This document shows, piece by piece, positions 2,916 to 30,275 of a stretch of DNA of 60,528 nt; position 1 is the first letter of the stretch, and each line of letters begins with the position of its first letter. The notes beneath the pieces are model-generated. The model searched no databases. It worked only from the letters and a program-made list of their open reading frames with translations, and was not told the DNA's origin. A program made the translations under genes and the position numbers. The DNA lies in NCBI GenBank assembly GCA_041497675.1, contig JBGQGY010000007.1:1-60528 (forward strand). The letters run 5' to 3'. The DNA is from a bacterium. Lineage in GTDB: Bacteria > Sysuimicrobiota > Sysuimicrobiia > Sysuimicrobiales > Humicultoraceae.

Positions 2916-4031
2916 GTGACCGAGAACGATCACATTCGTCACCAGTGGGACCGAGCACGAGTGTTGATGGAAGGCCAGGGCATCGACGCGCTCTTCGTGA
3001 CGGAGAAGTTTAACTACTGGATCCTCACCGGCCACCGCAGCCGGCAGTTTGACGGCAAGCAGCGGCCCATGCTGTTGATCCTCCCCTTGAAGGACGAACC
3101 GGTGATGATCGTCTACGGACGCGACGAACGCCAGGTTCGCGCGACCACACCGGTGAAGAACATCAAGACCTACGTCGATGTGCCCTTCCCGCTCGAGCTC
3201 GTGCCCGACACGTTCAAAGAACTCGGGCTCGACCGAGCCCGGATTGGCTGCGAGACCGGTGAGTTCCAGCGGCTCGGGATCTCCTACAGCGACTTCGAGG
3301 CGATCCGCCGGGCGCTGCCGGGCGCGAGCATCGTCGATGCGAGCCCGATCCACAACCACCTGCGGATGGTGAAGGCGCCGTGGGAGGTTGAACGGATCCG
3401 CGAGGCCTGCACGATGGCGACCCGGGCCTGGACGACGGCCCTGGGGCGCCTCCGGCCGGGGATGGACGTGGCACAGGTGCGGATCATCATCGCGCGCGCC
3501 ATGCTCGACGTCGGGGGGGAGGGCGGCCACATCGATCTCGGCCTGGAAGGACACGGTTTTGTCCACACTTATCGGTCGGGCGACTGGCTTTGGAGTGATT
3601 TCGGAACAGAGCACGAAGGATACCGGTCGGATTTAGCGCGCATGGCCGTTTTCGGCCCGCCGAGCGACGAGCAGAAACGGGAGTTCGAGCGCATCTGGGA
3701 CCTCACGAATCGCCTGATCCAGCGCATCGGGCCCGGTGTCCGGTGCTCGGACCTGGCCAGGCAGCACAGCGAAGACATGGTTAGGTTGGGTCTCCCCCCG
3801 TTGGAGGGCAGCAAACGAGTGGGGCACGGCTTTGGGGTGACGTCTGATCCGCCGTCCATCGGTTTGGCCGACGACACGGTGCTCGAGCCGGGCATGGTCC
3901 TCACTCCCGAGCCGAGGTACTTCATCGCCTCCGGCCAGCGGATGCATCTGGAAGAGGACGTCGTCGTGACCGCGAACGGGTGCGAGTTGCTTTCGACAGG
4001 CGCCGAGCGCCTGATCAGCATCGGTGGGTAG
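2916..4031 (+). CDS. M24 family Xaa-Pro peptidase
   Basis: Creatinase-like N-domain, LRMVK..WEVERIREA, and metal ligands D(SDFG), D(SDLAR), H(GHGFG), E(PEP), E(LEED). SD GGAGGAGG upstream. Confidence 0.88.
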   Translation: MTENDHIRHQWDRARVLMEGQGIDALFVTEKFNYWILTGHRSRQFDGKQRPMLLILPLKDEPVMIVYGRDERQVRATTPVKNIKTYVDVPFPLELVPDTFKELGLDRARIGCETGEFQRLGISYSDFEAIRRALPGASIVDASPIHNHLRMVKAPWEVERIREACTMATRAWTTALGRLRPGMDVAQVRIIIARAMLDVGGEGGHIDLGLEGHGFVHTYRSGDWLWSDFGTEHEGYRSDLARMAVFGPPSDEQKREFERIWDLTNRLIQRIGPGVRCSDLARQHSEDMVRLGLPPLEGSKRVGHGFGVTSDPPSIGLADDTVLEPGMVLTPEPRYFIASGQRMHLEEDVVVTANGCELLSTGAERLISIGG

Positions 4032-4041
4032 GGACGACGGC

Positions 4042-5013
4042 GTGAGACCGCTCTACATTTCCGCCGAAGTGACGCGGGACCTCATCACCGTCCGCGAGGT
4101 CCTGGACATCGTCGAGGACGTCTTTCGCATGCAGGCGCGCGGTGAAGTCACCTGGAGCGAGCCGTCGCGGTTCACGATCCACGGCCGATCCGAGCCCATC
4201 TATTCCCACGTCAAAGGGTGCATTCTCGAAGGCGTACCCATCATGGGGGTACGGGTCGTCGGCTACGCGATCCACCCCGACGGGTCGGGGACAAGCAACC
4301 CGGAATCCACGCGGGTCGTGGTCTTGACGGATCCCCGTACCGGTCGTCTCCTCGCGATCATCGATGAACACTGGACCTACGCGGTTCGAACGACGGCGGC
4401 GGCCGTCATCGGCGCGAAGTACCTGGCACGCCCTGACACACGCACCGTTGGTATCGTGGGCGCCGGGGCGCTGGCGCGCACGGGATTGATGGCGCTGGCC
4501 GCGACGTTTCGTCTCTCGCGTGTCGTGGTCACCTCCCGCCGGCGCGAGTCGTTTGAGGGCTTTGCCCGGGAGATGTCCGCGGAACTGGGCGTCGCGGTGG
4601 TGCCGCACGACTCGATTGAAGCGGTCTGCGCGGGCGCCGACGTGATCTTGGTGTCGACGACGGCGGGCCGGCCGCTGGTGCAGGAGCGGTGGGTGCCGCC
4701 CGGCGCCTGCCTGATTTCCATCGGCCGGGATGAGCTCGAGCACACGCTCTTCGCCGCGGTCGACAAGATCGTCGTCGACGAACGTCGCGAGGTCCTGCGC
4801 TCTCTTGAGACGGTGATGGCGGAGGGCCACCTGACGGAGGATCGAATCCATGCGGAGATCCAGGATATTGTCGCCAAGCGAAAACCTGGCCGGGAGCGTC
4901 CCGACGAGCGGATCCTGATCAAGACGGTCGGTCTGGTCAGTCAGGACGTGGCGGTCGCCTACCGGACCTATGAAAAGGCGGTCGCAGCGGGTCGTGGAAT
5001 ACCTCTAGCGTAG
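4042..5013 (+). CDS. Ornithine cyclodeaminase/mu-crystallin family protein
   Basis: RTTAAAVIGAKYLA, GIVGAG Rossmann motif, KTVGLVSQDVA. GTG at 4042 chosen as start. Confidence 0.88.
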   Translation: MRPLYISAEVTRDLITVREVLDIVEDVFRMQARGEVTWSEPSRFTIHGRSEPIYSHVKGCILEGVPIMGVRVVGYAIHPDGSGTSNPESTRVVVLTDPRTGRLLAIIDEHWTYAVRTTAAAVIGAKYLARPDTRTVGIVGAGALARTGLMALAATFRLSRVVVTSRRRESFEGFAREMSAELGVAVVPHDSIEAVCAGADVILVSTTAGRPLVQERWVPPGACLISIGRDELEHTLFAAVDKIVVDERREVLRSLETVMAEGHLTEDRIHAEIQDIVAKRKPGRERPDERILIKTVGLVSQDVAVAYRTYEKAVAAGRGIPLA

Positions 5014-5031: not shown

Positions 5032-6657
5032 GTGATCATGGTGCGCAAACAGGTGTTCATCGCCGCAGCCGTGCTGGGGGCGATCGTGCTGGTCGCCGCG
5101 ACCCTGAACGTCATGGCGCAGGATCAGGGTGTCTTCACCGACGGCGTCTTGATCTACGCGGACCGATCTGATCCCGAGGGGCTGGACCCCACGATGTTCA
5201 CCGGGACCTCAGGGTACATCCAGGGACATCTGATGTTTGACACCCTGTTGGGGAAGAACAACAACGGGAGGCTCGTGCCGCTCCTGGCTTCCTCCTGGCA
5301 GGTGAGCCCTGACGGGCGCACCTACACGTTCACGCTGCGCGGCGACGTCGAGTTCCACAGCGGCAAGAAGCTGACCTCGGCCGACGTCAAGTACTCGCTG
5401 GAGCGTCTGGGGAAAAAGGAGAACGCCTCACCCTGGAACGATCTGGTCGCGTTCGTCGACCGCGTCGAAGCGCCCGACGATTACACGGTGGTGGTCCGCC
5501 TCACCAAGCCCAACCGTTTGTTCCTCGATAGTATGTCCCAGACAGGCGCCTCGATCGTCAACCGGCAGGCGATCGAGAAGTACGGGAAGGAGTTCGGCCG
5601 GACGGTCGTGGATGGGACCGGGCCCTTCAAGCTCGTCGATCGCGCGTTCAATGAGCGGATCGTCTACGAGCGTTTCGATAAGTATCGGTGGGGACCGTCG
5701 TTCTACGGCAACCGCGGGCCGGCTCGTATCAAGCGGGTGGTGTGGCGGGTGATTCCCGAACTGGCAACACGCCAGCTCATCATGGAACGAGGCGAGATCG
5801 ACCTGATCACGCACAACGCCGCCCCGAACGTCCTCTATCGCGCCACAGAACTCAAAGGCCGGGTGGATGTCACGCTGCGGCCGGTGTTGGAGATCCGCGC
5901 CATCTTCACAAACGCGAACTTCCCGCGGATGAAGGATCGCGCGGTCCGGCGGGCCATCGCGCAGGCGATCAATAGCAAGGCCATTGCCGAGACCATCTAT
6001 GCGCCGGTCGGCGCGCAGGCCTTCAATATGCTCCATCCGTTGGCCTACGGATACTGGAAGGGCGCTGAGCAGGCGGCGCTGCGATACGATCCCGCCCGGG
6101 CCCGGCAAACGTTGGATGAGGCCGGCTGGAGGCTGAATGCGCAGGGCTTCCGTGAGAAGGGCGGCGTGGTACTCAGCGGCATCAAGTTGATGGGACTGCC
6201 GCAGTATCGGGAGGCGGCCGTCGTGGTGAAGGAGAGCCTGGGCGAGATTGGCATCGGCGCCGACATCGAGCTGTCCGAACGCGGGCGGCTCTACCCGCTG
6301 CGTCGCACCGGTGACGTCGAGCTGGAGTTCACCAACACGACGGGCGCGCCCGACGTGCTCATGGAGTATATGCATTCCACCAACTTCCCCGGGACGAATC
6401 GCTTTGGCTGGAAGGATGCCCGCACCGACCAGTTGATCGAGACCTTTCTCGCCGGGGCCGACGAGAAGAGGGCGCTGGAGGCCGGGTACGAGGTTCAAAA
6501 GATCGCCGTCGCGGAAGAGGCGCTCTTTATCCCCGTGTACCTCACCCAGGAGCTGAACATCGTCAACAGCCGGACCGTACGCGGGTTCGTCGGAACGACC
6601 TGGCTCAACTCGGGAGTGGGGAAACTGCTGGGCGTGTGGAGTACCCGGCGGCCCTGA
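5032..6657 (+). CDS. Peptide/nickel ABC transporter substrate-binding protein (family 5)
   Basis: Signal peptide, LDP motif, LA.SW.VS.DG.TYTF.LR..V.FH.G, GTGPFKL. Confidence 0.92.
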   Translation: MIMVRKQVFIAAAVLGAIVLVAATLNVMAQDQGVFTDGVLIYADRSDPEGLDPTMFTGTSGYIQGHLMFDTLLGKNNNGRLVPLLASSWQVSPDGRTYTFTLRGDVEFHSGKKLTSADVKYSLERLGKKENASPWNDLVAFVDRVEAPDDYTVVVRLTKPNRLFLDSMSQTGASIVNRQAIEKYGKEFGRTVVDGTGPFKLVDRAFNERIVYERFDKYRWGPSFYGNRGPARIKRVVWRVIPELATRQLIMERGEIDLITHNAAPNVLYRATELKGRVDVTLRPVLEIRAIFTNANFPRMKDRAVRRAIAQAINSKAIAETIYAPVGAQAFNMLHPLAYGYWKGAEQAALRYDPARARQTLDEAGWRLNAQGFREKGGVVLSGIKLMGLPQYREAAVVVKESLGEIGIGADIELSERGRLYPLRRTGDVELEFTNTTGAPDVLMEYMHSTNFPGTNRFGWKDARTDQLIETFLAGADEKRALEAGYEVQKIAVAEEALFIPVYLTQELNIVNSRTVRGFVGTTWLNSGVGKLLGVWSTRRP

Positions 6658-8535: not shown

Positions 8536-10134
8536 ATGGCAACGTGGCGGTGGTTCGGTCGGGCCGCGGCGATGGTGCTCGCTGTGGTGCTGCTCGCACC
8601 CCTGGCGTTCGCTCAGGTGCAGCCCAGACCCGGCGGCGAGCTCGTCTTTGTCACGACGGAGGAGCCGGACACCCTCGACCCGCAGAAGACCAGCGCGGCC
8701 GTGACGGGTAACGTCATGCGCTGGATGGCCGATACGCTGGTCACCAAGGACCTCAGCGGCAACTACACTGGTGCGCTGGCGAAGTCGTGGACCGTTTCGC
8801 GCGACGGCCTCGTCTGGACCTTCCAGCTCAAGGAGAACGTGAAGTTTCACGACGGCTCCCCGTTCAACGCGCAGTCGGTGAAGGGGTCGATCGAGCGGGC
8901 GCTCGCCCCCGAGACCAAGTCGCCGGTTGCCGGTGCCCTGTTTGGCCCGGTGGCCAGCGTGACCGCCGAAGGCGCACTGACGGTCGTCATCAAACTCAAG
9001 GAATCCTTCTCGCCGTTCCTCGATAACCTGACGGACCCGCGCGCAGTCATCATCAGCGCGCAGGCCGCGCAGCAGCTCGGTGACCGATTTGGCCGGAGCC
9101 CTGTGGCGACCGGCCCGTTCAAGATTCAGGAATGGCGCAGCGCAGACCGTGTCATCCTGGTGCGCAACCCCGACTATCAGTGGGGTCCGAGTTACGCCCA
9201 CGCGGGGCCGCCGTATGTCGAGCGGCTGATCCTGCGGATCGTGCCGGAGTTGGCCGCCCAAGTGGCGGCGTTCGAGCGGGGCGAGATCACGGTCACGTTC
9301 CCCGCGGTCATCCCGCCGACGGACGTGCGCCGGCTACAGGACACGAAGAAGTACGCTATGTTCACCTTCCTGCGCAAGGGTATCGCCAACATGATGGAGT
9401 TCAACGTCACGAAAGAGCCGTTCACCGACGTGCGGGTGCGGCGTGCCTTAGCCTTCGCGATCGAGAAGAAGAGCATCCTGCATATTGCGCTGGAGGATCT
9501 GGGCGAGGTCGCCTATGGTCCGCTCCCGCCTTCGATCTGGGGGTATTGGGACGGTATCAAGGACTACGCGCCTGGGTACGATCCCGGCCAGGCCAAACGG
9601 CTGCTGGCCGAGGCTGGGTGGCAGCCGGGGGCGGGCGGGGTACTGCAAAAGGACGGCAAGCCGTTCACCTTCCAACTCTTCATCGTCCCAACCGACCTGG
9701 CGCGGAAGACGGCTCAGATCATCCAGGCACAGTTGCGGGCCTACGGCATCCAGATGGAGATCCAGCCCTTCGAGTTTGGGACCCTGCTGGCGAAGTTGCG
9801 CGCGGGCGAGCACCAGGCCGAAACCCTCGGCTACACGTACACATCACCCGACATCTTCTTCCTGTGGTTCCATTCGTCCAATGTGGGCACAGGGTTGACG
9901 TTCAGCCACAACAAGGATCCGCAGCTCGACAAGATGATCGTGGCGTCGCGGACTGAGACGAGCCCGCAAAAGCGGCTGGAAATCTATCGGGACCTGCAAA
10001 AGTACGTCGTAGACAAAGCGCTGTGGGTGCCGCTGTTTATCAATACCAACTACATTGCGATCCAGCCAAACGTGCAGGGCGCGAAGGTCCACCCCGACGG
10101 GTACCTCGTAGTGGCGGATATGTACCTCCGCTGA
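8536..10134 (+). CDS. Second peptide ABC transporter substrate-binding protein (family 5)
   Basis: SD GAGGAGG before ATG 8536, signal peptide ending AFA-Q, EPDTLDP, VKFHDG, ATGPFK. Confidence 0.92.
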   Translation: MATWRWFGRAAAMVLAVVLLAPLAFAQVQPRPGGELVFVTTEEPDTLDPQKTSAAVTGNVMRWMADTLVTKDLSGNYTGALAKSWTVSRDGLVWTFQLKENVKFHDGSPFNAQSVKGSIERALAPETKSPVAGALFGPVASVTAEGALTVVIKLKESFSPFLDNLTDPRAVIISAQAAQQLGDRFGRSPVATGPFKIQEWRSADRVILVRNPDYQWGPSYAHAGPPYVERLILRIVPELAAQVAAFERGEITVTFPAVIPPTDVRRLQDTKKYAMFTFLRKGIANMMEFNVTKEPFTDVRVRRALAFAIEKKSILHIALEDLGEVAYGPLPPSIWGYWDGIKDYAPGYDPGQAKRLLAEAGWQPGAGGVLQKDGKPFTFQLFIVPTDLARKTAQIIQAQLRAYGIQMEIQPFEFGTLLAKLRAGEHQAETLGYTYTSPDIFFLWFHSSNVGTGLTFSHNKDPQLDKMIVASRTETSPQKRLEIYRDLQKYVVDKALWVPLFINTNYIAIQPNVQGAKVHPDGYLVVADMYLR

Positions 10135-23380: not shown

Positions 23381-24846
23381 TGGGCGCCCGAACCGGCAGC
23401 CAGTACGTCGAGGGCGTGCGGGCCAGGCCGCGCGATCTGTGGATCGCCGGCGAGCAGGTCACCGATCCCGTCACGCATCCCGCTTTCCGAAACGTCATCC
23501 GCAGCGTCGCCGCGCTCTACGACATGCAGCACGATCCCGCCCGGCGCGATGAGATGACCTGCATTTCGCCATCAAGCGGCGAACGTGTGGGCATGTCGTT
23601 TCTGACGCCGCGCAGCCACGATGATCTGGTACGCGTGCGACGCATGATGAAACGGTGGGCCGACTATTCCGGTGGCATGATGGGCCGCTCGCCTGACTAC
23701 CTGAACCGCGCGTTGATGGCCTGCGCCGCGGCCGCCGACTACATGACCGCCAACGATCCGCGGTTCGGTGAGAACATCAGGCGGTATTACGAGCACGTGC
23801 GCGAGCACGATCTCTGCTTGACGCACACGTTGATCAACCCGCAATCCAACCGATCGGTCGGGCCGTCGGCGCAGGCCGACCCGTATCTCGCAGCGGGCAT
23901 CGTCCGCGAGACGTCTGATGGGATCGTGATCCGCGGGGCGCGGATGCTGGCCACGCTGCCGGTCAGCGATGAGATCATGGCGTTTCCTTCAACGGTGCTC
24001 CGCGGCGGCCCCGAGGACGCCCCATATGCGTTTGCGGTCGCCATCCCGTGCTCGACGGCCGGGCTCCGCTTCATCTGCCGGGAGCCCTTCGATGACGGCC
24101 GCGGGCCGGTCGATCATCCGCTGGCCGCGCGGTTCGAGGAGATGGACGCCGTTGTTATCTTCGACGACGTGCTGGTGCCCTGGGACCGGGTCTTCCTGCT
24201 GCGCGACGTCGAACGGTGCAGCCGCGTCTTTGCCGAGACGCGCGCCGTCGTGCACATGGCGCATCAGGTGGTCACCAAGAACGTCGCGAAGACCGAGTTT
24301 GTGTTGGGCGTCGTCAGCCTGATAGTCGAGACAATCGCCATCGAGGAATTCCAGCACGTCCAGGAGAAAGTGGCCGAAGTCATCCAGTACCTCGAGATGA
24401 TGCGCGCGTTCCTGCGCACCGCGGAGGCCGATGCGTCCATTGACCGGTGGGGGATGATGACACCGGCCTGGCCGCCCCTGGATGCCGCCCGCAACGTGTT
24501 CACGCGCGCGTACCCTCGGATGATGGAGATCGTCCATCAATTGGGAGCCAGCGGTCTGATGGCCATTCCCCTGCAGGCGGACATCGAAGGCCCGCAGGGG
24601 CCGACGATCCAGAAGTACTATCAGGCGGCGCGTGCGGGCGCCCGCGATCGCATCAGGCTCTTCCGGCTGGCATGGGACATGGCGCTGTCGGCGTTCGGCG
24701 GTCGTCAGGCGCTGTATGAACGCTTCTTCTTTGGCGACCCGGTGCGCATGGCCGGCGCGATGTTTGCGAGTTACGATCGGACGCCGTACATGGACCGCGT
24801 GCGGGCGTTTCTCGCCCGCGCCGACCACGAAAGCGACGGCGACTGA
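23380..24846 (+). CDS. hpaB: 4-hydroxyphenylacetate 3-monooxygenase, oxygenase component
   Basis: MGARTG.QY, MMGRSPDY, HTLINPQ.NR, RFEEMDA, RQ.LYERFFFGDP. TGATG coupling with the upstream gene. Confidence 0.92.
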   Translation: MGARTGSQYVEGVRARPRDLWIAGEQVTDPVTHPAFRNVIRSVAALYDMQHDPARRDEMTCISPSSGERVGMSFLTPRSHDDLVRVRRMMKRWADYSGGMMGRSPDYLNRALMACAAAADYMTANDPRFGENIRRYYEHVREHDLCLTHTLINPQSNRSVGPSAQADPYLAAGIVRETSDGIVIRGARMLATLPVSDEIMAFPSTVLRGGPEDAPYAFAVAIPCSTAGLRFICREPFDDGRGPVDHPLAARFEEMDAVVIFDDVLVPWDRVFLLRDVERCSRVFAETRAVVHMAHQVVTKNVAKTEFVLGVVSLIVETIAIEEFQHVQEKVAEVIQYLEMMRAFLRTAEADASIDRWGMMTPAWPPLDAARNVFTRAYPRMMEIVHQLGASGLMAIPLQADIEGPQGPTIQKYYQAARAGARDRIRLFRLAWDMALSAFGGRQALYERFFFGDPVRMAGAMFASYDRTPYMDRVRAFLARADHESDGD

Positions 24847-25445
24847 TGCCGAACGGACCCGATCCCAAGACCTTTCGACACACCATGGGCCTCTTCGCCA
24901 CCGGGGTGACGGTCGTATCGATCCGTGAGGGCGGCGAGGTCCTTGGGATGACCGCCAACTCGGTCACGTCAGTGTCGCTGGAGCCGCTGTTGGTGCTGGT
25001 GAGCGTCGATTTGCGGGCCAGGATCGCGCCGCACATGACGATGGGCCGGTTCTTCGCGATCAACTTCCTGCGGGACGACCAGGAAGTGCTGTCACGCTAC
25101 TATGCCGGCGGGTGGCGCGATCATCCACAACCTGAGCACCGCTTCGAGCCCTGGAACGGGACCCCGCGGCTGGTCGGCGCGCTCGCCGCGGTACGGTGTC
25201 AGGTGTATCGAGTCGATGAGGGCGGCGACCACCACATCGTCGTCGGTCGGGTGCTCGAGCTAGGGGAGGGCCCGGCTCCGTGGAACCCGCTGTTGTTCTT
25301 CGCCGGTCGGTACAGACGCCTGGCCCCACTGGACGCGGTCGCCGCACCCCCCGAGCGGTTAGGGCCGGACGGCATCTCGATCTACTATGAAGAGTGGGGC
25401 AGTGCCGATCGGCGTCCTGCTCAAGCCTCCGACCCGCCCGCATAG
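24846..25445 (+). CDS. hpaC: Flavin reductase (HpaC-like reductase component)
   Basis: FR..MG.FATGVTVV, GMTANS.TSVSL.P, GGDH.I..G.V, PLLFF.GRY. Directly follows hpaB. Confidence 0.85.
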   Translation: MPNGPDPKTFRHTMGLFATGVTVVSIREGGEVLGMTANSVTSVSLEPLLVLVSVDLRARIAPHMTMGRFFAINFLRDDQEVLSRYYAGGWRDHPQPEHRFEPWNGTPRLVGALAAVRCQVYRVDEGGDHHIVVGRVLELGEGPAPWNPLLFFAGRYRRLAPLDAVAAPPERLGPDGISIYYEEWGSADRRPAQASDPPA

Positions 25446-25490
25446 TCTCACCTAGGTCCTCGGCGCCCGTACAGACGTCCCCGCAAGGCC

Positions 25491-25520
25491 GAACCCCGCC
25501 GGTCTGGCACGGCGGGGTTC
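25491..25520. terminator. GC-rich hairpin, probable terminator between hpaC and the convergent small ORF
   Basis: Perfect 11-bp stem GAACCCCGCCG / CGGCGGGGTTC with 8-nt loop. No strong U-tract. Confidence 0.6.
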
Positions 25521-25525
25521 TCAAG

Positions 25526-25633
25526 CTACGAAGGGTCGGGGATGGGACCGGAACGACGTCCTCCGGCACCGTCGGCCCGGAGGGGACACCCCCGACCCGA
25601 ACTTTGGCTATTTGCCCTTCGCTTCTGGTCCAT
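25526..25633 (-). CDS. Putative 35-aa small protein (MDQKRRANSQSSGRGCPLRADGAGGRRSGPIPDPS), divergent from the pro-peptide gene
   Basis: Strong SD GAGGAG 9 nt before ATG. TAG followed within 5 nt by the 25491-25520 hairpin. Confidence 0.4.
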   Translation of the reverse strand: MDQKRRANSQSSGRGCPLRADGAGGRRSGPIPDPS

Positions 25634-25662
25634 TTGCGGGGTCTCCTCTGCCCGATAGCCTA

Positions 25663-25761
25663 GAATATCCGGGTTCTGGGATATTCACTGTATGAGGGTC
25701 CGGGGGCTTCACTGTAGATGAAGTTTTTGGGATCTGCGGCAGGAACTTCATCTCCTGCCGC
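25663..25761. promoter_or_regulatory. Divergent control region with inverted and direct repeats (candidate operators)
   Basis: GAATATCC-N8-GGATATTC (25663-25686); TTCACTGTA twice (25684, 25708); AGATGAAGTT-N18-AACTTCATCT (25716-25753); GCGGCAGGA-N8-TCCTGCCGC (25736-25761). Locally AT-richer. Confidence 0.55.
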
Positions 25762-25849
25762 CGAAACCGATAGACATCCCAGATTGCAGTCTCCCTGGTG
25801 CCCGCGAGAGACCTGTCAGACGACGAACGGACACTGAGGGGGGACTGAG

Positions 25850-25996
25850 ATGAAGAAGTTGTTTGCCGTTGTGCTATTGGGTTTGATGCTTGGGGTCGTG
25901 GCTGCCTGGGGTCAGATCGATCCGACCCGCACCGCCGGTGACGGGAACATCGAGGTCATCGCAGGCGACGGGAACATCGAAGTGATCGGCGGCTAG
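25850..25996 (+). CDS. 48-aa secreted signalling pro-peptide MKKLFAVVLLGLMLGVVAAWG-QIDPTRT-AGDGNIEVI-AGDGNIEVI-GG
   Basis: SD GAGGGGG, classical Sec signal peptide (MKK + hydrophobic core + A-W-G), tandem 9-aa repeat with only synonymous differences. Lies 51 nt upstream of an XRE-TPR gene. Confidence 0.88.
   Translation: MKKLFAVVLLGLMLGVVAAWGQIDPTRTAGDGNIEVIAGDGNIEVIGG
25934..25987 (+). repeat. 2 x 27-bp tandem repeat encoding AGDGNIEVI
   Basis: GCCGGTGACGGGAACATCGAGGTCATC / GCAGGCGACGGGAACATCGAAGTGATC: 4 mismatches, all third-position synonymous. Confidence 0.95.
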
Positions 25997-26047
25997 CCCG
26001 CCGCGCACCGCAGCACTAGGCAAGGCCCTACGCCGGGAGGGAACGCC

Positions 26048-27337
26048 GTGACGCTTGGTGAGAAGATTCGCCAGGCCAGGAAGCAGCGCGGGATCACGCA
26101 GCGGGCGCTCGCCGGCGGTGACCTCTCGGAGAGTTTCATCAGTATGCTCGAACACGACAAGGTCAGGCCGTCACTCGACACCATGCGGGTGCTGGCGGGG
26201 CGCCTCTGTGTGCCCCTGAGTGAACTGCTCGACGCCGCTCCACCCCCGCAGAAGCAGGTGATCGTCAAACTCAAGCTCGCAAGTACGCTGCTCCACCAGC
26301 ACCGTTTCACCGACGCGCTCGAGGCGTTCCAAGATGCGGAGCGCGCCGCGCCTGATGCCACGATGGAGACGGCCTTTCGGATCCACACGGGCATGGGGCA
26401 GGCCTTGACCGGGCTCCAACAGTACGACCTGGCGCTTGACCGCCTGGAGCGCGGGCGAGCGCTGGCAGATACACTCGGGCGGCCGGATTTGGTTGCGCGT
26501 GTGGCGAGTGCCACCGGGTTTCTCCGCCTCCGGCAGCGCGACTTTCCGGCCGCCCGGGAAGAGTTTCATCACGGCCTGACCGCGATCAGGTCGGTAGCGC
26601 CCGTCGACACCGAGTTCGAGGGCGGACTGCTGACCAACCTGGGCCGGACCTATACAGACCTTGGTCTGCCGGTCCAGGCCCTAGAGTGTTTCCGGGCCGC
26701 TCTCGAGCGACTCGAGGGCGTCGGCGACCTCACCGCGCTCGGCGCGCTGCATTTTAACCTTGGCGTGACCTACGAGCGTCAGCGCGCGTTCGACCTCGCC
26801 CGGCGGCATTTGGAAAAAGCGGCGGCGCTCTTCGAGGCCCAAGAGAACCTCAAACTGCTCGGGACGGTCAAGCGCAGCTTGGGGATCTTGCTGATCGACC
26901 GCGGCCACGCCGCCGAAGCTGCGGAGGTGTTGAAGCAAAGCTTGGAAGTCGCCACCCGCACGGCGGACGACATCGGTCGCGCGCAGACCCTCACCGAACT
27001 GGCCCGCGCCGCGTTGGCCCTCGGCGACCTCGCGACCGCCCGGGCCGGCGCTGATGAAGCGATTCGTTTGGCCGTGAGAGTGCAAGACCCGCTCGAAGCG
27101 GCGCGCGCCGAATCGGTCATGGCGGCCGTCTGCCACCGCGAAGGCCGGTTCGACGAGGCCACCCACCGGTATGCCTATGCCCTGGAGCAATACGAGACGC
27201 TGAATGCCGCCGCTGATGTCGCCCGCGTGAGCCGCGACTACGCCTTCTTACTCATGGAACGAGGAGAGGAGGTCCGAGCCGCCCGCCATTTCGCCCGCGC
27301 GTTCCGCGCGCAGGAAGCCGCAGGCGTCGCTCGATGA
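26048..27337 (+). CDS. XRE-HTH + TPR transcriptional regulator (RRNPP/NprR-PlcR-like peptide receptor)
   Basis: LGEKIRQARKQRGITQRALAG.DLSESFISMLE.DKVRPS HTH, followed by about 8 TPR-like helical pairs including LLTNLGRTY and LHFNLGVTY. SD GGGAGG. Confidence 0.85.
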   Translation: MTLGEKIRQARKQRGITQRALAGGDLSESFISMLEHDKVRPSLDTMRVLAGRLCVPLSELLDAAPPPQKQVIVKLKLASTLLHQHRFTDALEAFQDAERAAPDATMETAFRIHTGMGQALTGLQQYDLALDRLERGRALADTLGRPDLVARVASATGFLRLRQRDFPAAREEFHHGLTAIRSVAPVDTEFEGGLLTNLGRTYTDLGLPVQALECFRAALERLEGVGDLTALGALHFNLGVTYERQRAFDLARRHLEKAAALFEAQENLKLLGTVKRSLGILLIDRGHAAEAAEVLKQSLEVATRTADDIGRAQTLTELARAALALGDLATARAGADEAIRLAVRVQDPLEAARAESVMAAVCHREGRFDEATHRYAYALEQYETLNAAADVARVSRDYAFLLMERGEEVRAARHFARAFRAQEAAGVAR

Positions 27338-27588
27338 CGCCGATGCCGACGTCGCGCTCAGGGGAACTGCGCGGCGAGACACGCGTGCCGCGTCATACGC
27401 TGAGACCGCTCAGTCCGTTGGAGCGAGAGATCATTCTCCTGGCCGAGCAGGGAATGTCGGTGCGGGAGATCGCCTACCATCTGTCGATCGATACTTGTCT
27501 GGTCAGAGACCGTCTTCGTACGATCCTCGGACCGCCGGCAAACCACCGGCGGAGCGCGCGACCGGGTCGAGAGAGCCTAGCTGTCTAG
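27334..27588 (+). CDS. Small solo LuxR/sigma-region-4-like HTH protein
   Basis: LSPLEREIILLAEQGMSVREIAYHLSI...VRDRL..I. ATGA overlap with the receptor stop codon. Confidence 0.65.
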   Translation: MTPMPTSRSGELRGETRVPRHTLRPLSPLEREIILLAEQGMSVREIAYHLSIDTCLVRDRLRTILGPPANHRRSARPGRESLAV

Positions 27589-28809
27589 GTCCGCCAACCC
27601 GCCGTTGCCGTCGCGGGCCGATTTTTCGGCGGTCGCGGCGACCGCTAGATAGCGCGCGGCCGCGTCGTGCTCGGCGCGCATCTGATGGTACAGTCCCAAC
27701 GCCTTTGCCGCCTCCGCAAGCTCTGCGTGTGCCCCGAGTCCGGCCATCTGAGCCACGGCGTCCGCCAGCATCGCCACCGCCTCGCCCTGCCGGCCCTGCG
27801 CCAGAAGTGCGCGGCCGCGCAGCGCCGCGATCCGGGGCGCTGCGGCGGTGGCAGGGGCGTCTGCCATTGACGACGCTTCATCGGCGGCGCGCAGCGCAAG
27901 CACGGTATTGCCTGCGGCCAGCGCGGCGCCGCCGAGAACCAACAGGGCCAGCAGACGCTTCTTGGCGTTGCCGTGCTGGGCAAACAGACGCGCCGCGGCC
28001 TGCAGATGAACGACGGCATCGACATGCGCTCCGTCGAGACCGAGGACCATGCCCAGTCTGAAACGCGCGTCGGCGTGGAGCGTCTCCATCTGCTGCCGCT
28101 CGGCAAGCGTCGCCGCGGACTGCAACCGGCGCCGCGCCTGCCTGAGGTCGCCGGCCTGCACCGCGGTGGCGGCGATCCCAAAGAGCGCACGCGCGGTGAG
28201 GTCTGGGTGCCGCGAGCTCTTTCGCGAAAGACCCAGCGCCCGCTGGAACGCCGCGGTGGCGGCCCGCGTGTCGTCACGGCGCAGCATCAGCAGTCCGGCC
28301 GTGAGTTCCTTGCGGATGCGCATCCGCTGGCCCACCGAGGACGCGAGCGCGCCGGCTTCTTCGATCAATGGGTCGGCTCGGTGGAGCGCGCCCGTGCGGA
28401 TCTCGATTTCAGCCAGGAGTAATGCCGCCTCCGCGCGATGTTCGTCCCATCCCGCGGCCGACGCCATCTCGGAGGCCACGCCGAGGACGCGGCGCGCCAG
28501 CGTCTCATCGCCTTCACGCGCCGCGTCGCGCGCCCAACGCAGCAGGCCTTCCATGCCTGCGAGATGCTGATCGGCGTTGTCGCCGGCGACCGTCGACAAC
28601 GACATCCGCAGTCGACGGCTGAGAAACCGCAGGGTATCGAGCGAGGGATCGGCAAAACCGCCTTCGAGCTGACTGATGAAACTTTTCGTGTAGTCCGGCG
28701 CAGCGAGATCGGCCTGCGTCAACTCAAGCTCGCGCCGTCGTTGGCGAATACGAGGACCAATTGGCGCATCTTCAGGAGATACGTGGCGTCGGGAAGGGTG
28801 TCGGCCCAC
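27577..28809 (-). CDS. Second XRE-HTH + TPR regulator, convergent
   Basis: IGPRIRQRRRELELTQADLA..DYTKSFISQLE.G.ADPSLDTLRFLSRRL, followed by Ala-rich TPR-like helices. GTG at 28809 after GAGAGG preferred, 28851 possible. Confidence 0.82.
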   Translation of the reverse strand: MGRHPSRRHVSPEDAPIGPRIRQRRRELELTQADLAAPDYTKSFISQLEGGFADPSLDTLRFLSRRLRMSLSTVAGDNADQHLAGMEGLLRWARDAAREGDETLARRVLGVASEMASAAGWDEHRAEAALLLAEIEIRTGALHRADPLIEEAGALASSVGQRMRIRKELTAGLLMLRRDDTRAATAAFQRALGLSRKSSRHPDLTARALFGIAATAVQAGDLRQARRRLQSAATLAERQQMETLHADARFRLGMVLGLDGAHVDAVVHLQAAARLFAQHGNAKKRLLALLVLGGAALAAGNTVLALRAADEASSMADAPATAAAPRIAALRGRALLAQGRQGEAVAMLADAVAQMAGLGAHAELAEAAKALGLYHQMRAEHDAAARYLAVAATAEKSARDGNGGLADLDS

Positions 28810-28918
28810 GTGCACCCTCTCAGGCGAGTCTTGCGACACATTAGAACACATCGGGTGCGGACAGGGAACAGGCGTCTAAAATGTTAGCTATGCTCTACTC
28901 TCAGAGACGGGGCTCAAC

Positions 28919-28947
28919 TTGACACTCAACGGGGTCTCTGCTATACG
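28919..28947 (+). promoter_or_regulatory. Sigma70-type promoter for hom
   Basis: TTGACA (28919-28924), 17-nt spacer, TATACG (28942-28947) with extended TGn. Confidence 0.6.
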
Positions 28948-28982
28948 GGGTGCAACGCAATCGGAGGGATTCAGTAGCAGCG

Positions 28983-30275
28983 ATGCGGTCGCGCGCGGGT
29001 GAATGCCGGATTGGGTTGTTGGGATTGGGGACCGTTGGGTCGGCGGTCGCCGGGCTGCTTCTGCGCTCTCAGGACGAGATCGCGCGGCGGGCCGGGCTGC
29101 CCATCCGGCTGCGGAGCGTCGCCGTGGCCCATACCGACCGGGCGAGGACCGTCACGCTGCCCGATGGCATCCTGACCGGTGACGCCGGATCAGTCGTGAC
29201 CGATCCCGCCGTGGATGTCGTCGTCGAGGTGATGGGTGGCATCGAGCCCGCGCGCACGCACATCCTCCGCGCGCTGGCCGCGGGCAAGTCTGTGGTCACG
29301 GCCAACAAGCAACTGATGTCCACGCGTGGCGAGGAACTGTTGGCCGCCTCAGCGGAGCGCGGGGTCGATCTCTTCTTCGAAGCCAGTGCGTGCGGCGGCA
29401 TCCCCATCATCAAGACGATCCGCGAGTCGCTGGCCGCCAATGATATTACGCAGATCATGGGAATCGTGAACGGCACGACGAACTTTATCCTGACGCGGAT
29501 GGCGCAGGATGGGGTCGGGTTTGGCGAGGCGCTCGCAGAAGCGCAGCGGCTGGGTTACGCGGAGGCCGACCCGACCGACGACGTTGATGGGCATGACGCG
29601 GCGGCGAAACTCGCGATCCTGGCGTCGGCCGCGTTTGACAGCCGCGTAGTGAGTGCCGACGTCTACCGCGAAGGCGTAGCCAACATCACACCCCGGGTCA
29701 TCACGTATGCGCGTGAGATGGGGTATGTGGTGAAATTGCTTGCGATCGCCCGAAGCGTCGAAGGGGCGATCGAAGCGCGCGTCCATCCCGCCTTGCTGCC
29801 CCAGACGCACCCGCTCGCCGGGGTTGGCCACGAATTGAACGCGGTGCTCATCGAGGCCGAGCCCGCGGGGCCGATCGTGCTGCAGGGTCGTGGGGCCGGC
29901 GGGGGGCCGACGGCCAGCGCCGTGGTCGGAGACCTGATCGACGTCGCCCGCAACTTGAGGGCCGGGGCGTGCAACCGGATCAGGAGTAGCGGCGGGCATC
30001 GGCGTCCCGTGAAGGAGATGGCCGACGTGGTGTTGGCCTACTGCGTCTCGCTGGTGGTCGCCGATCGGCCGGGCGTCTTTGCGCAGGTCGCGGGAGCGTT
30101 CGGTGAAGAGCGGGTGAGTATCGCTTCGATCGTGCAGAAGAGCCGGGGGGTGACGGCGGATGTCGTGCTGGTCACCCACGAAGCGCCGGAGGCGGCGATG
30201 CGCCGGACGCTGGCGCGCCTTCACCGGCTCAATGTGGTGGCAGACGTCCACGCCGTGTTGCGTATCGCGGCGTGA
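28983..30275 (+). CDS. hom: Homoserine dehydrogenase with C-terminal ACT domain
   Basis: GLLGLGTVG, VVTANK, FEAS.CGGIP, NGTTNFIL, GYAEADP..DVDG.DAAAK, DRPGVF. Confidence 0.93.
   Translation: MRSRAGECRIGLLGLGTVGSAVAGLLLRSQDEIARRAGLPIRLRSVAVAHTDRARTVTLPDGILTGDAGSVVTDPAVDVVVEVMGGIEPARTHILRALAAGKSVVTANKQLMSTRGEELLAASAERGVDLFFEASACGGIPIIKTIRESLAANDITQIMGIVNGTTNFILTRMAQDGVGFGEALAEAQRLGYAEADPTDDVDGHDAAAKLAILASAAFDSRVVSADVYREGVANITPRVITYAREMGYVVKLLAIARSVEGAIEARVHPALLPQTHPLAGVGHELNAVLIEAEPAGPIVLQGRGAGGGPTASAVVGDLIDVARNLRAGACNRIRSSGGHRRPVKEMADVVLAYCVSLVVADRPGVFAQVAGAFGEERVSIASIVQKSRGVTADVVLVTHEAPEAAMRRTLARLHRLNVVADVHAVLRIAA

Follow-up and report, generated by a model that had tools for sequence, protein, structure and literature searches.

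Does a gene for a small exported peptide, placed directly ahead of a gene for a helix-turn-helix (HTH) protein with tetratricopeptide repeats (TPRs), constitute a peptide-signalling cassette of the RRNPP kind in a bacterium outside the Bacillota? The question is raised by a locus in a 60,528-nt stretch of DNA (contig JBGQGY010000007.1 of assembly GCA_041497675.1, positions 1–60,528, hereafter the window) from a bacterium of the phylum Candidatus (Ca.) Sysuimicrobiota. The locus contains a pro-peptide gene and, downstream of it, the gene for a receptor-like protein designated R1, and we read it, with a probability of roughly 0.62, as an RRNPP-like signalling cassette with the peptide gene first, in a diderm member of that phylum. 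In those parts of three publications that deal with distribution, RRNPP systems are treated as a trait of Bacillota and of their phages and plasmids, and the surveys described are restricted to Firmicutes and viruses (PMC9765709, PMC10075063, PMC12700828). The present cassette is chromosomal and lies in Ca. Sysuimicrobiota, and thus does not have the Bacillota host of those systems.

A preliminary description of the window, made from the DNA alone, had placed a pro-peptide gene, R1, an 84-aa open reading frame (ORF), and a second receptor-like gene, R2, next to one another, and all four ORFs were confirmed at their positions. The features of the locus, in window coordinates, are as follows.

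25850–25996, plus strand: pro-peptide gene, 48 aa (ORF with Shine-Dalgarno sequence)
26048–27337, plus strand: R1, XRE-HTH and nine-TPR protein, 429 aa, GTG start (Pfam)
27334–27588, plus strand: weak HTH protein, 84 aa (sub-threshold Pfam matches)
27577–28851, minus strand: R2, convergent second HTH-TPR protein (HTH_3 and TPR_12, Pfam)
25531–25598, plus strand: conserved hairpin element, non-coding, 68 nt (covariance model, alignment)
25682–25767, plus strand: control region of the peptide gene (conserved block, presumed R1 operator)

The R1 start lies 51 nt past the stop of the peptide gene.

Pairing of the pro-peptide gene with R1

In the window, and likewise in 14 of 14 full-length loci on genome contigs, a small ORF precedes R1 at a distance of 24–108 nt, and the upstream ORFs of these 15 loci all have a Shine-Dalgarno sequence, a start of the form M-[RK]-[RKT], and a hydrophobic stretch. 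An automatic small-ORF detector was positive at 26 of the 27 evaluable R1-orthologue loci among L025–L053, a series of 29 loci from which two without the R1 N-terminus were set aside. The sole miss, L028, lies on a contig that starts inside the peptide gene, within at least five tandem repeats. After removal of 14 duplicates, the distinct orthologue loci that allow a judgement number 28, and every one of them has a peptide gene; one (L048) comes from the unpublished genome G017. As a control, the same detector gives a positive call for 47 out of 1500 long ORFs picked at random from the window's genome, and comparison of this rate with the 26 of 27 orthologue loci indicates a pairing beyond chance. 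The preliminary description had proposed a peptide-first order and had suggested looking for small signal-peptide ORFs beside receptor homologues; the 28 of 28 distinct loci, set against the control rate, bear out the second point, and the first holds in every peptide-bearing locus, where the peptide gene is upstream of the receptor gene and co-oriented with it. In the passage of the RRNPP_detector paper that gives its definition, the receptor gene is accompanied by an adjacent gene for a Sec-exported pro-peptide of 10–100 aa (PMC10075063). Such a gene, with the signal peptide called by a heuristic, adjoins R1 at all 28 loci; one distant precursor is longer, at ~170 aa.

Two distant R1 paralogues encoded in the same genome (26–27% identity) are likewise preceded by peptide ORFs, which differ in their C-terminal motifs, and the peptides of all three in-genome cassettes end in GG. 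Among 20 distant homologues from other families of the phylum (28–39% identity), eight are detector-positive, one more has a nine-copy precursor (L074, in genome G069), and one has a degenerate copy with a disturbed N-terminus. Genome G069 also encodes a second receptor paralogue 9 kb from L074, which has a tRNA gene upstream and no peptide gene. At L015 (Ca. Fervidifonticultor quartus) only R1 residues 318–425 are left (positions 4001–4324) and the peptide gene is gone, with R2 and the flanks intact; judged by its gene content, this locus has lost both signal and receptor in nature.

Peptide core, operator, and receptor

The pro-peptide ORF is preceded by a strong ribosome-binding stretch (GAGGGGGG) and encodes MKK, ~17 hydrophobic residues, and a C-terminal part consisting of two copies of AGDGNIEVI followed by GG, in keeping with the duplicated signal that had been proposed. 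The C-termini of the pro-peptides align gap-free to A-G-x-G-x-x-[E/D]-h-h (h, hydrophobic residue), and the eight-residue core G-x-G-x-x-E/D-h-h is exemplified by GDGNIEVI, GHGDGELL, GHGDGPVL, and GHGGGELL. Core types track clades. The copy number of the core ranges from one to at least five among orthologues and is nine in one distant relative, L074 (G069:C17, upstream of the receptor at 770997–772259), whose pro-peptide contains nine tandem copies of LVPAGDDNGG with 8-residue linkers. In a single pro-peptide at L035 (G009:C46), two core types stand together (GHGDGGAV twice and GHGDGVML once), a diversification inside one precursor. Variants with one and three copies in nature are hinted at by loose ends of RNA-library contigs just 8 nt long.

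Codon differences between intragenic copies, counted pairwise in 11 multi-copy genes, are synonymous in 90 cases and non-synonymous in 7, the pattern match used for the count having missed four genes (L001, L008, L028, and L035). The two core copies in the window gene differ by four synonymous codons and by no non-synonymous one. The synonymous excess between copies indicates that the ORF is translated and that the core is under strong purifying selection. In the single-copy loci L047, L049, and L050 the core directly follows the ..FA end of the signal peptide, at its A-x-A site, and in L051 and L053 the protein stops exactly at ..GHGGGELL, with the stop codon directly after the core; from these two ends we infer the bounds of an octapeptide. 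The mature signal would be the octapeptide beginning with the Gly that follows the universally conserved Ala, namely GDGNIEVI in the window. In the multi-copy genes a small-x-Ala sequence is found ahead of every core, and these junctions appear to resemble signal-peptidase-type sites.

Upstream of the peptide gene, alignment of 15 regions reveals the succession TTCAG, ~19 nt, CTTCA-N7-TGAAGTT, 14–16 nt, AGGAACTTCA, 6–10 nt, GTCGAA. In the window this control region has four TTCA/TGAA boxes (TTCA at 25684–25687, CTTCA-N7-TGAAG at 25707–25723, and TGAAGTT-N16-GGAACTTCA at 25719–25750) and a conserved (G/C)(T/C)CGAA at 25760–25765. The block is kept in 15 of the 15 aligned regions, down to 48% R1 identity, and an nhmmer profile of it has one site in the genome at E 8.6e-15, the next matches, on C89 and C26, being at E 0.2 and E 1.4. 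Positions 25682–25767 are presumed to be the R1 operator, and the size of the 17-bp palindrome would suit a dimeric XRE-type HTH. Consensus scans of 25400–26060 identified no sigma-70 promoter or intrinsic terminator. Promoters of the extracytoplasmic function (ECF) type have a spacer of roughly 16 nt, and an ECF-type assignment of GGAACTT..TCGAA was dropped because the spacer here is ~12 nt. The promoters of the two paralogous cassettes (G000 C28:9447–9520; C51:2874–2960, minus strand) share CAATTGTA[AG]ACAT[CT]GAA at ~55–75 nt ahead of the peptide start, a motif unlike the TTCA boxes of the R1 cassette.

R1 matches the Pfam families TPR_12 (E 3.4e-27) and HTH_3 (E 4.5e-8, above the cut-off, residues 7–60). 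An AlphaFold2 model of R1 built with 14 orthologues has a mean predicted local distance difference test score of 92.8, and comprises an HTH at residues 1–60 and 18 paired helices, equivalent to nine TPRs, at residues 67–428. The HTH forms the N-terminus, and the protein has no signal peptide or membrane segment. In the part of PMC9765709 that describes RRNPP receptors, these are cytoplasmic proteins with 5–9 TPR-type repeats that form a superhelix with a concave pocket. By Pfam and the model, R1 has the cytoplasmic 5–9-TPR build of RRNPP/RRNPPA receptors as well as the N-terminal HTH found in all RRNPP subfamilies but Rap. The protein is encoded in 81 of the 94 genomes of the phylum-level search set, all from one order, at E ≤ 1e-10. 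In a large protein collection its family comprises ~65 clusters at ≥43% identity, labelled just as 'TPR' or 'HTH' proteins, with a sharp fall to ~30% identity beyond this tier, and one degenerate HTH pattern, derived from a broad alignment and run over 185,579 species genomes, finds 24 loci, all of them in CSP1-3-type or unnamed metagenome-assembled genomes (MAGs), a single-pattern result that is no proof of absence from other groups. Look-alike HTH_3 and TPR clusters of ~430 aa occur in the ESM Atlas, most commonly from Dormiibacterota, Actinomycetota, and Chloroflexota.

Compared with known systems, the cassette shares with NprR-NprX of the Bacillus cereus group a receptor of about 420–430 aa with an N-terminal XRE-type HTH and nine TPRs, an adjoining gene for a small exported pro-peptide, and a presumed mature signal of 7–8 residues. 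It differs from that system in that R1 is only ~14% identical and lacks a family match at the sequence level, the peptide gene of the window cassette lies upstream instead of downstream, the cassette belongs to a diderm from a different phylum, the Sysuimicrobiota core is present in 1–9 tandem copies, and the binding of the peptide there is predicted. PlcR of PlcR-PapR, also from the Bacillus cereus group, is likewise an HTH and TPR protein, an activator that binds a palindrome and drives expression of its own peptide gene, and it is the only RRNPP receptor that the R1 sequence profile reaches (PDB entry 2qfc, E 8e-8, by HTH residues 3–88 alone), but it has five TPRs in 285 aa and its PapR gene lies downstream. 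Among the Rap-Phr systems of Bacillus, its phages, and plasmids, RapI provides the best bacterial fold match to R1 and RapF binds a GerE-type DNA-binding domain (title of PDB entry 3ulq), which can be set beside the GerE solo coupled to the receptor in 11 deep-branching loci of the present collection; Rap, unlike R1, is without an HTH, and a receptor-GerE contact in Sysuimicrobiota is an idea only. Multi-peptide pro-peptides are reported for Rap, NprR, PlcR, and AimR systems, and Bacillales systems encode the pheromone downstream of the receptor, according to PMC9765709. The Sysuimicrobiota precursors have up to nine copies, and the cassettes depart from the downstream peptide layout of the Bacillales type (Rap, NprR, PlcR, and AimR).

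Host, flanking genes, and companion elements

The preliminary description held that the host does not look like a typical low-GC Firmicute, and the R1 relatives together with NCBI taxonomy place it in Ca. Sysuimicrobiota (CSP1-3). In one-genome-per-species collections these relatives are MAGs titled Ca. Fervidifonticultor, 'Armatimonadetes bacterium CSP1-3', or similar, and the genus Ca. Fervidifonticultor is placed within Ca. Sysuimicrobiota by NCBI taxonomy. The window's genome (~4 Mb, 98.6% complete) has one Omp85/BamA match and one LpxC match, and the host is therefore most likely a diderm with lipopolysaccharide (LPS). The same genome has 116 matches to SBP_bac_5, the OppA/DppA-type peptide-binding family, an unusually large repertoire for peptide uptake; two of them are within the window (5272–6390 and 8764–9876), and none is linked to the cassette. 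No description of peptide-receptor systems of such kind in Sysuimicrobiota was found in the literature searched, and the word 'quorum' is absent from the main texts of the main papers on the phylum. In the same literature no paper joins RRNPP with Armatimonadota, and those that join it with Actinomycetota or Chloroflex* appear to concern other matters. No paper cataloguing the system was found, which agrees with its presentation as a candidate undescribed one.

The cassette is flanked by genes for a flavin reductase and a homoserine dehydrogenase (Pfam), and the mobile-element genes that had been reported as missing from the flanks are indeed not there. The same two genes enclose the cassette in relatives (tblastn), indicating chromosomal DNA that is vertically inherited, as expected of the chromosomal module first proposed. 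In some relatives an extradiol-dioxygenase-like gene lies between the flavin reductase gene and the hairpin (L001 2315–3316, L006 1987–3024, and L009 2300–3340); it is not there in the window. A perfect 11-bp GC-rich stem (GAACCCCGCCG / CGGCGGGGTTC) without a T tract is found at 25491–25520, 46 nt past the flavin reductase stop, and may be a terminator of a GC-rich genome.

The 84-aa ORF had been described as a translationally coupled solo LuxR-like HTH protein. The coupling stands, its ATG start overlapping the R1 stop as ATGA. The LuxR assignment is less secure, since the matches to Pfam GerE (19.9 bits against a cut-off of 23.5, profile positions 2–29 only) and Sigma70_r4_2 (20.3 bits against 25.7) are below the cut-offs and BLASTP against the GerE protein of L012 gives E 1.7. 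That L012 protein, whose gene occupies the equivalent place, has a true GerE domain (E 1.6e-13), and the 84-aa protein shows no demonstrable homology to it. Of the 26 loci that have downstream sequence, 13 have a small HTH gene coupled to R1, these being all 11 loci at ≤51% R1 identity together with the window and its sister. The 84-aa protein is probably a decaying or diverged output regulator, as judged from these comparisons. One RNA-library contig (X15) joins 27342 to 27568 with five other letters between them, pointing to a relative without the 84-aa ORF.

R2 is, by Pfam, a second HTH-TPR protein in convergent orientation, and in this respect the two receptors of the preliminary description are both present. 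Comparison of orthologues indicates GTG at 28809 as its probable start, giving a protein of 410 aa. R2 orthologues with 46–72% identity are present in L001–L011 and L015 and in none of L012–L014, the gene being restricted to a subclade with R1 identity of ≥69%. R2 is 31% identical to R1 over residues 3–177, has a deletion of ~44 residues relative to R1, and is encoded only 98 nt from the divergent hom gene. It is an orphan paralogue, no peptide gene accompanying it. Between R1 and R2, the inserted genes vary by lineage and include a trypsin-like peptidase at L006 (5328–6365), the locus that has a five-copy precursor, a patatin-like phospholipase ~30 nt after R1 at L003, L004, and L007, and an Amidase_2 protein at L011 (6319–7197).

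A divergent small ORF that had been proposed at 25526–25633 on the minus strand is not upheld. It overlaps the conserved 68-nt hairpin at 25531–25598, in which 1- and 2-nt indels occur among orthologues, and this segment is consequently not coding. The hairpin, with an outer stem formed by GGGTCGGGG.. and ..CCCCGACCC, has a nucleotide identity of 80–95% across 13 orthologous loci, as against ~70% identity of the R1 proteins there; it is single-copy in the window's genome, and the edges of its alignment are sharp. Its consensus fold comprises 22 pairs, and compensatory changes are seen in 2 of these. A covariance model locates the element in 19 of the 94 phylum genomes, all in the window's family and with one full-length place in each (an additional partial match in G030 is at a contig end), and in 15 of the 19 it shares a contig and strand with R1 and lies upstream of it. 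The hairpin and R2 belong to the same subclade, and the hairpin stays with the cassette irrespective of the extradiol-dioxygenase-like insertion in relatives. Scans of 24000–30000 with Rfam and for tRNA genes gave nothing relevant, the only match being a chance one to mir-126 (E 0.74), and the hairpin has no Rfam match.

Weighing of the readings and significance

As regards the receptor, the HTH-TPR architecture and a fold like that of NprR and Rap are in keeping with the RRNPP-type assignment made in the preliminary description. With VIA-align, the R1 model superposes by its whole TPR domain on apo RapI with Z 32.3 (root mean square deviation (rmsd) 3.0, 353 residues) and on apo NprR with Z 28.7 (rmsd 3.9, 348 residues, model residues 66–423 on chain residues 67–418), the domain boundaries of NprR being the same; NprR-NprX gives Z 25.0. 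Several observations weigh against the reading of the locus as an RRNPP-like cassette, and the first concern this fold. Eukaryotic LGN gives Z ~33, as high as or above Rap and NprR, and a Foldseek search with the R1 model has the TPR domains of LGN/Pins at the top, with Rap proteins from rank 33 on. The PDB sequence profile reaches PlcR by the HTH alone and gives E 3.6e-4 for Rap105, and R1 matches none of the RRNPP-receptor models of Pfam or NCBIfam. Thus the predicted architecture of R1 is that of NprR, but the fold match is unspecific to RRNPP receptors and does not establish homology to them. A hand tally of invariant polar residues (~15 in the inner, A, helices and 9 in the outer, B, helices) is too weak to use.

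Further points on the same side concern the peptide, its export, and its targets. No upstream peptide was found for 10 of the 20 distant homologues, and a tRNA gene is upstream of the receptor instead in two of the 20 (L055/L076 and L056/L075) and in L078, outside the 20. The signal-like N-terminus was judged by a heuristic of this analysis. A regulon search returned the promoter of the cassette alone, with no second operator site in the genome. Sec export takes a diderm's protein no further than the periplasm, and the reading assumes that the peptide then crosses the outer membrane and re-enters. Expression of the cassette has a weak hint in RNA-library contigs, which may include DNA and give neither strand nor level: contigs from four metatranscriptome runs map on the locus, X15 covering 25703–26089 (operator, peptide gene, and R1 start) and the other three runs covering portions of R1, with one contig bridging the gap between the peptide gene and R1. 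The stretch that holds the hairpin (25300–25662) and R2 are not covered by these contigs, which is uninformative either way.

The alternative that survives best, although we consider it unlikely, is that R1, as an ordinary transcription factor, responds to some other input and has the small gene as its conserved target, encoding a secreted or periplasmic repeat peptide of a bacteriocin-like, surface-active, or metal-binding nature. Co-location and co-conservation of a regulator and its target fit the data equally well as those of a receptor and its ligand, the TPR fold match is generic, and Sec export in a diderm delivers to the periplasm. The occurrence of H, D, and E in many cores could suggest metal binding, but the core His is swapped for D, R, V, S, or P in orthologues, which argues against a fixed metal site. 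Moreover, each of the genome's three paralogous cassettes has retained a peptide unlike those of the other two, the pattern of specificity pairs, and genes for immunity, transport, or modification are not conserved next to the pair. The eight-residue cores also have the size of known receptor-bound pheromones.

Less probable still is a private loop from periplasm to cytoplasm, in which the same cell re-imports the peptide and the circuit reports on secretion, protease, uptake capacity, or the state of the envelope, and not on density. The outer membrane with LPS and the extreme number of peptide-binding proteins are compatible with such a loop, as is the operator unique to the cassette, which makes the circuit mainly self-referential. 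Octapeptides of ~0.8 kDa may, however, pass porins, and the diversification of cores between lineages and the presence of several cassettes per genome are typical of kin-discriminating signals. A ribosomally synthesized and post-translationally modified peptide (RiPP) precursor, with the repeats as natural-product cores and R1 as pathway regulator, can be all but set aside: tandem multi-core precursors are typical of several RiPP classes, the precursors here have up to nine copies, and a weak NCBIfam TPR match to the RiPP-associated HaaT is detected (E 3.5e-6, far under the cut-off), but the precursor begins with a Sec-type signal instead of a leader, and a modifying enzyme, a dedicated protease, or an exporter is not among the conserved neighbours of the pair; these neighbours vary (patatin-like, Amidase_2, trypsin-like) or are housekeeping genes.

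The RRNPP-like signalling cassette remains the favoured explanation, and of the peptide quorum-sensing system originally put forward, the conserved peptide-first pair, the host, and the inheritance have stood, whereas the divergent ORF and the LuxR details have not. Its predicted operation begins with Sec export of the pro-peptide and cleavage after the Ala ahead of every core. The released peptide, GDGNIEVI in the window, would be re-imported, probably via one of the many Opp-type transporters, and would bind in the concave TPR groove of R1. Binding would alter the action of R1 at the TTCA boxes, making the operon self-regulating, and the core copy number, from 1 to 9, would set the signal yield per transcript. 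The ancestral output may have been exerted via the translationally coupled GerE/LuxR-type solo; in the window's subclade this solo would be decaying or lost, and the orphan receptor R2 and the hairpin would have joined the locus.

A wider proposal is made more tentatively, and we hold it to be somewhat improbable as a whole. In it, signalling of the RRNPP kind would be an old and widespread Terrabacteria-type trait that works even with an LPS outer membrane. The precursors would be polyprotein-like, with 1–9 identical cores cut at Ala-Gly junctions and with repeat number tuning the output, and in Sysuimicrobiota the receptor would act in concert with the GerE solo coupled to it, with a second receptor that is an orphan, and with a structured RNA dedicated to the cassette.

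The locus presents a cassette with RRNPP logic that is conserved through an uncultured, globally common, outer-membrane-bearing phylum. The tandem multi-core precursors, with their clear junctions, offer a clean system for studying the maturation of multi-peptide pro-peptides. If the signalling reading is true, synthetic peptides would give concrete access to how organisms behave of which there are enrichments but as yet no isolates, the question would arise of how an octapeptide exits and re-enters a diderm cell, and the known range of peptide communication would be widened.

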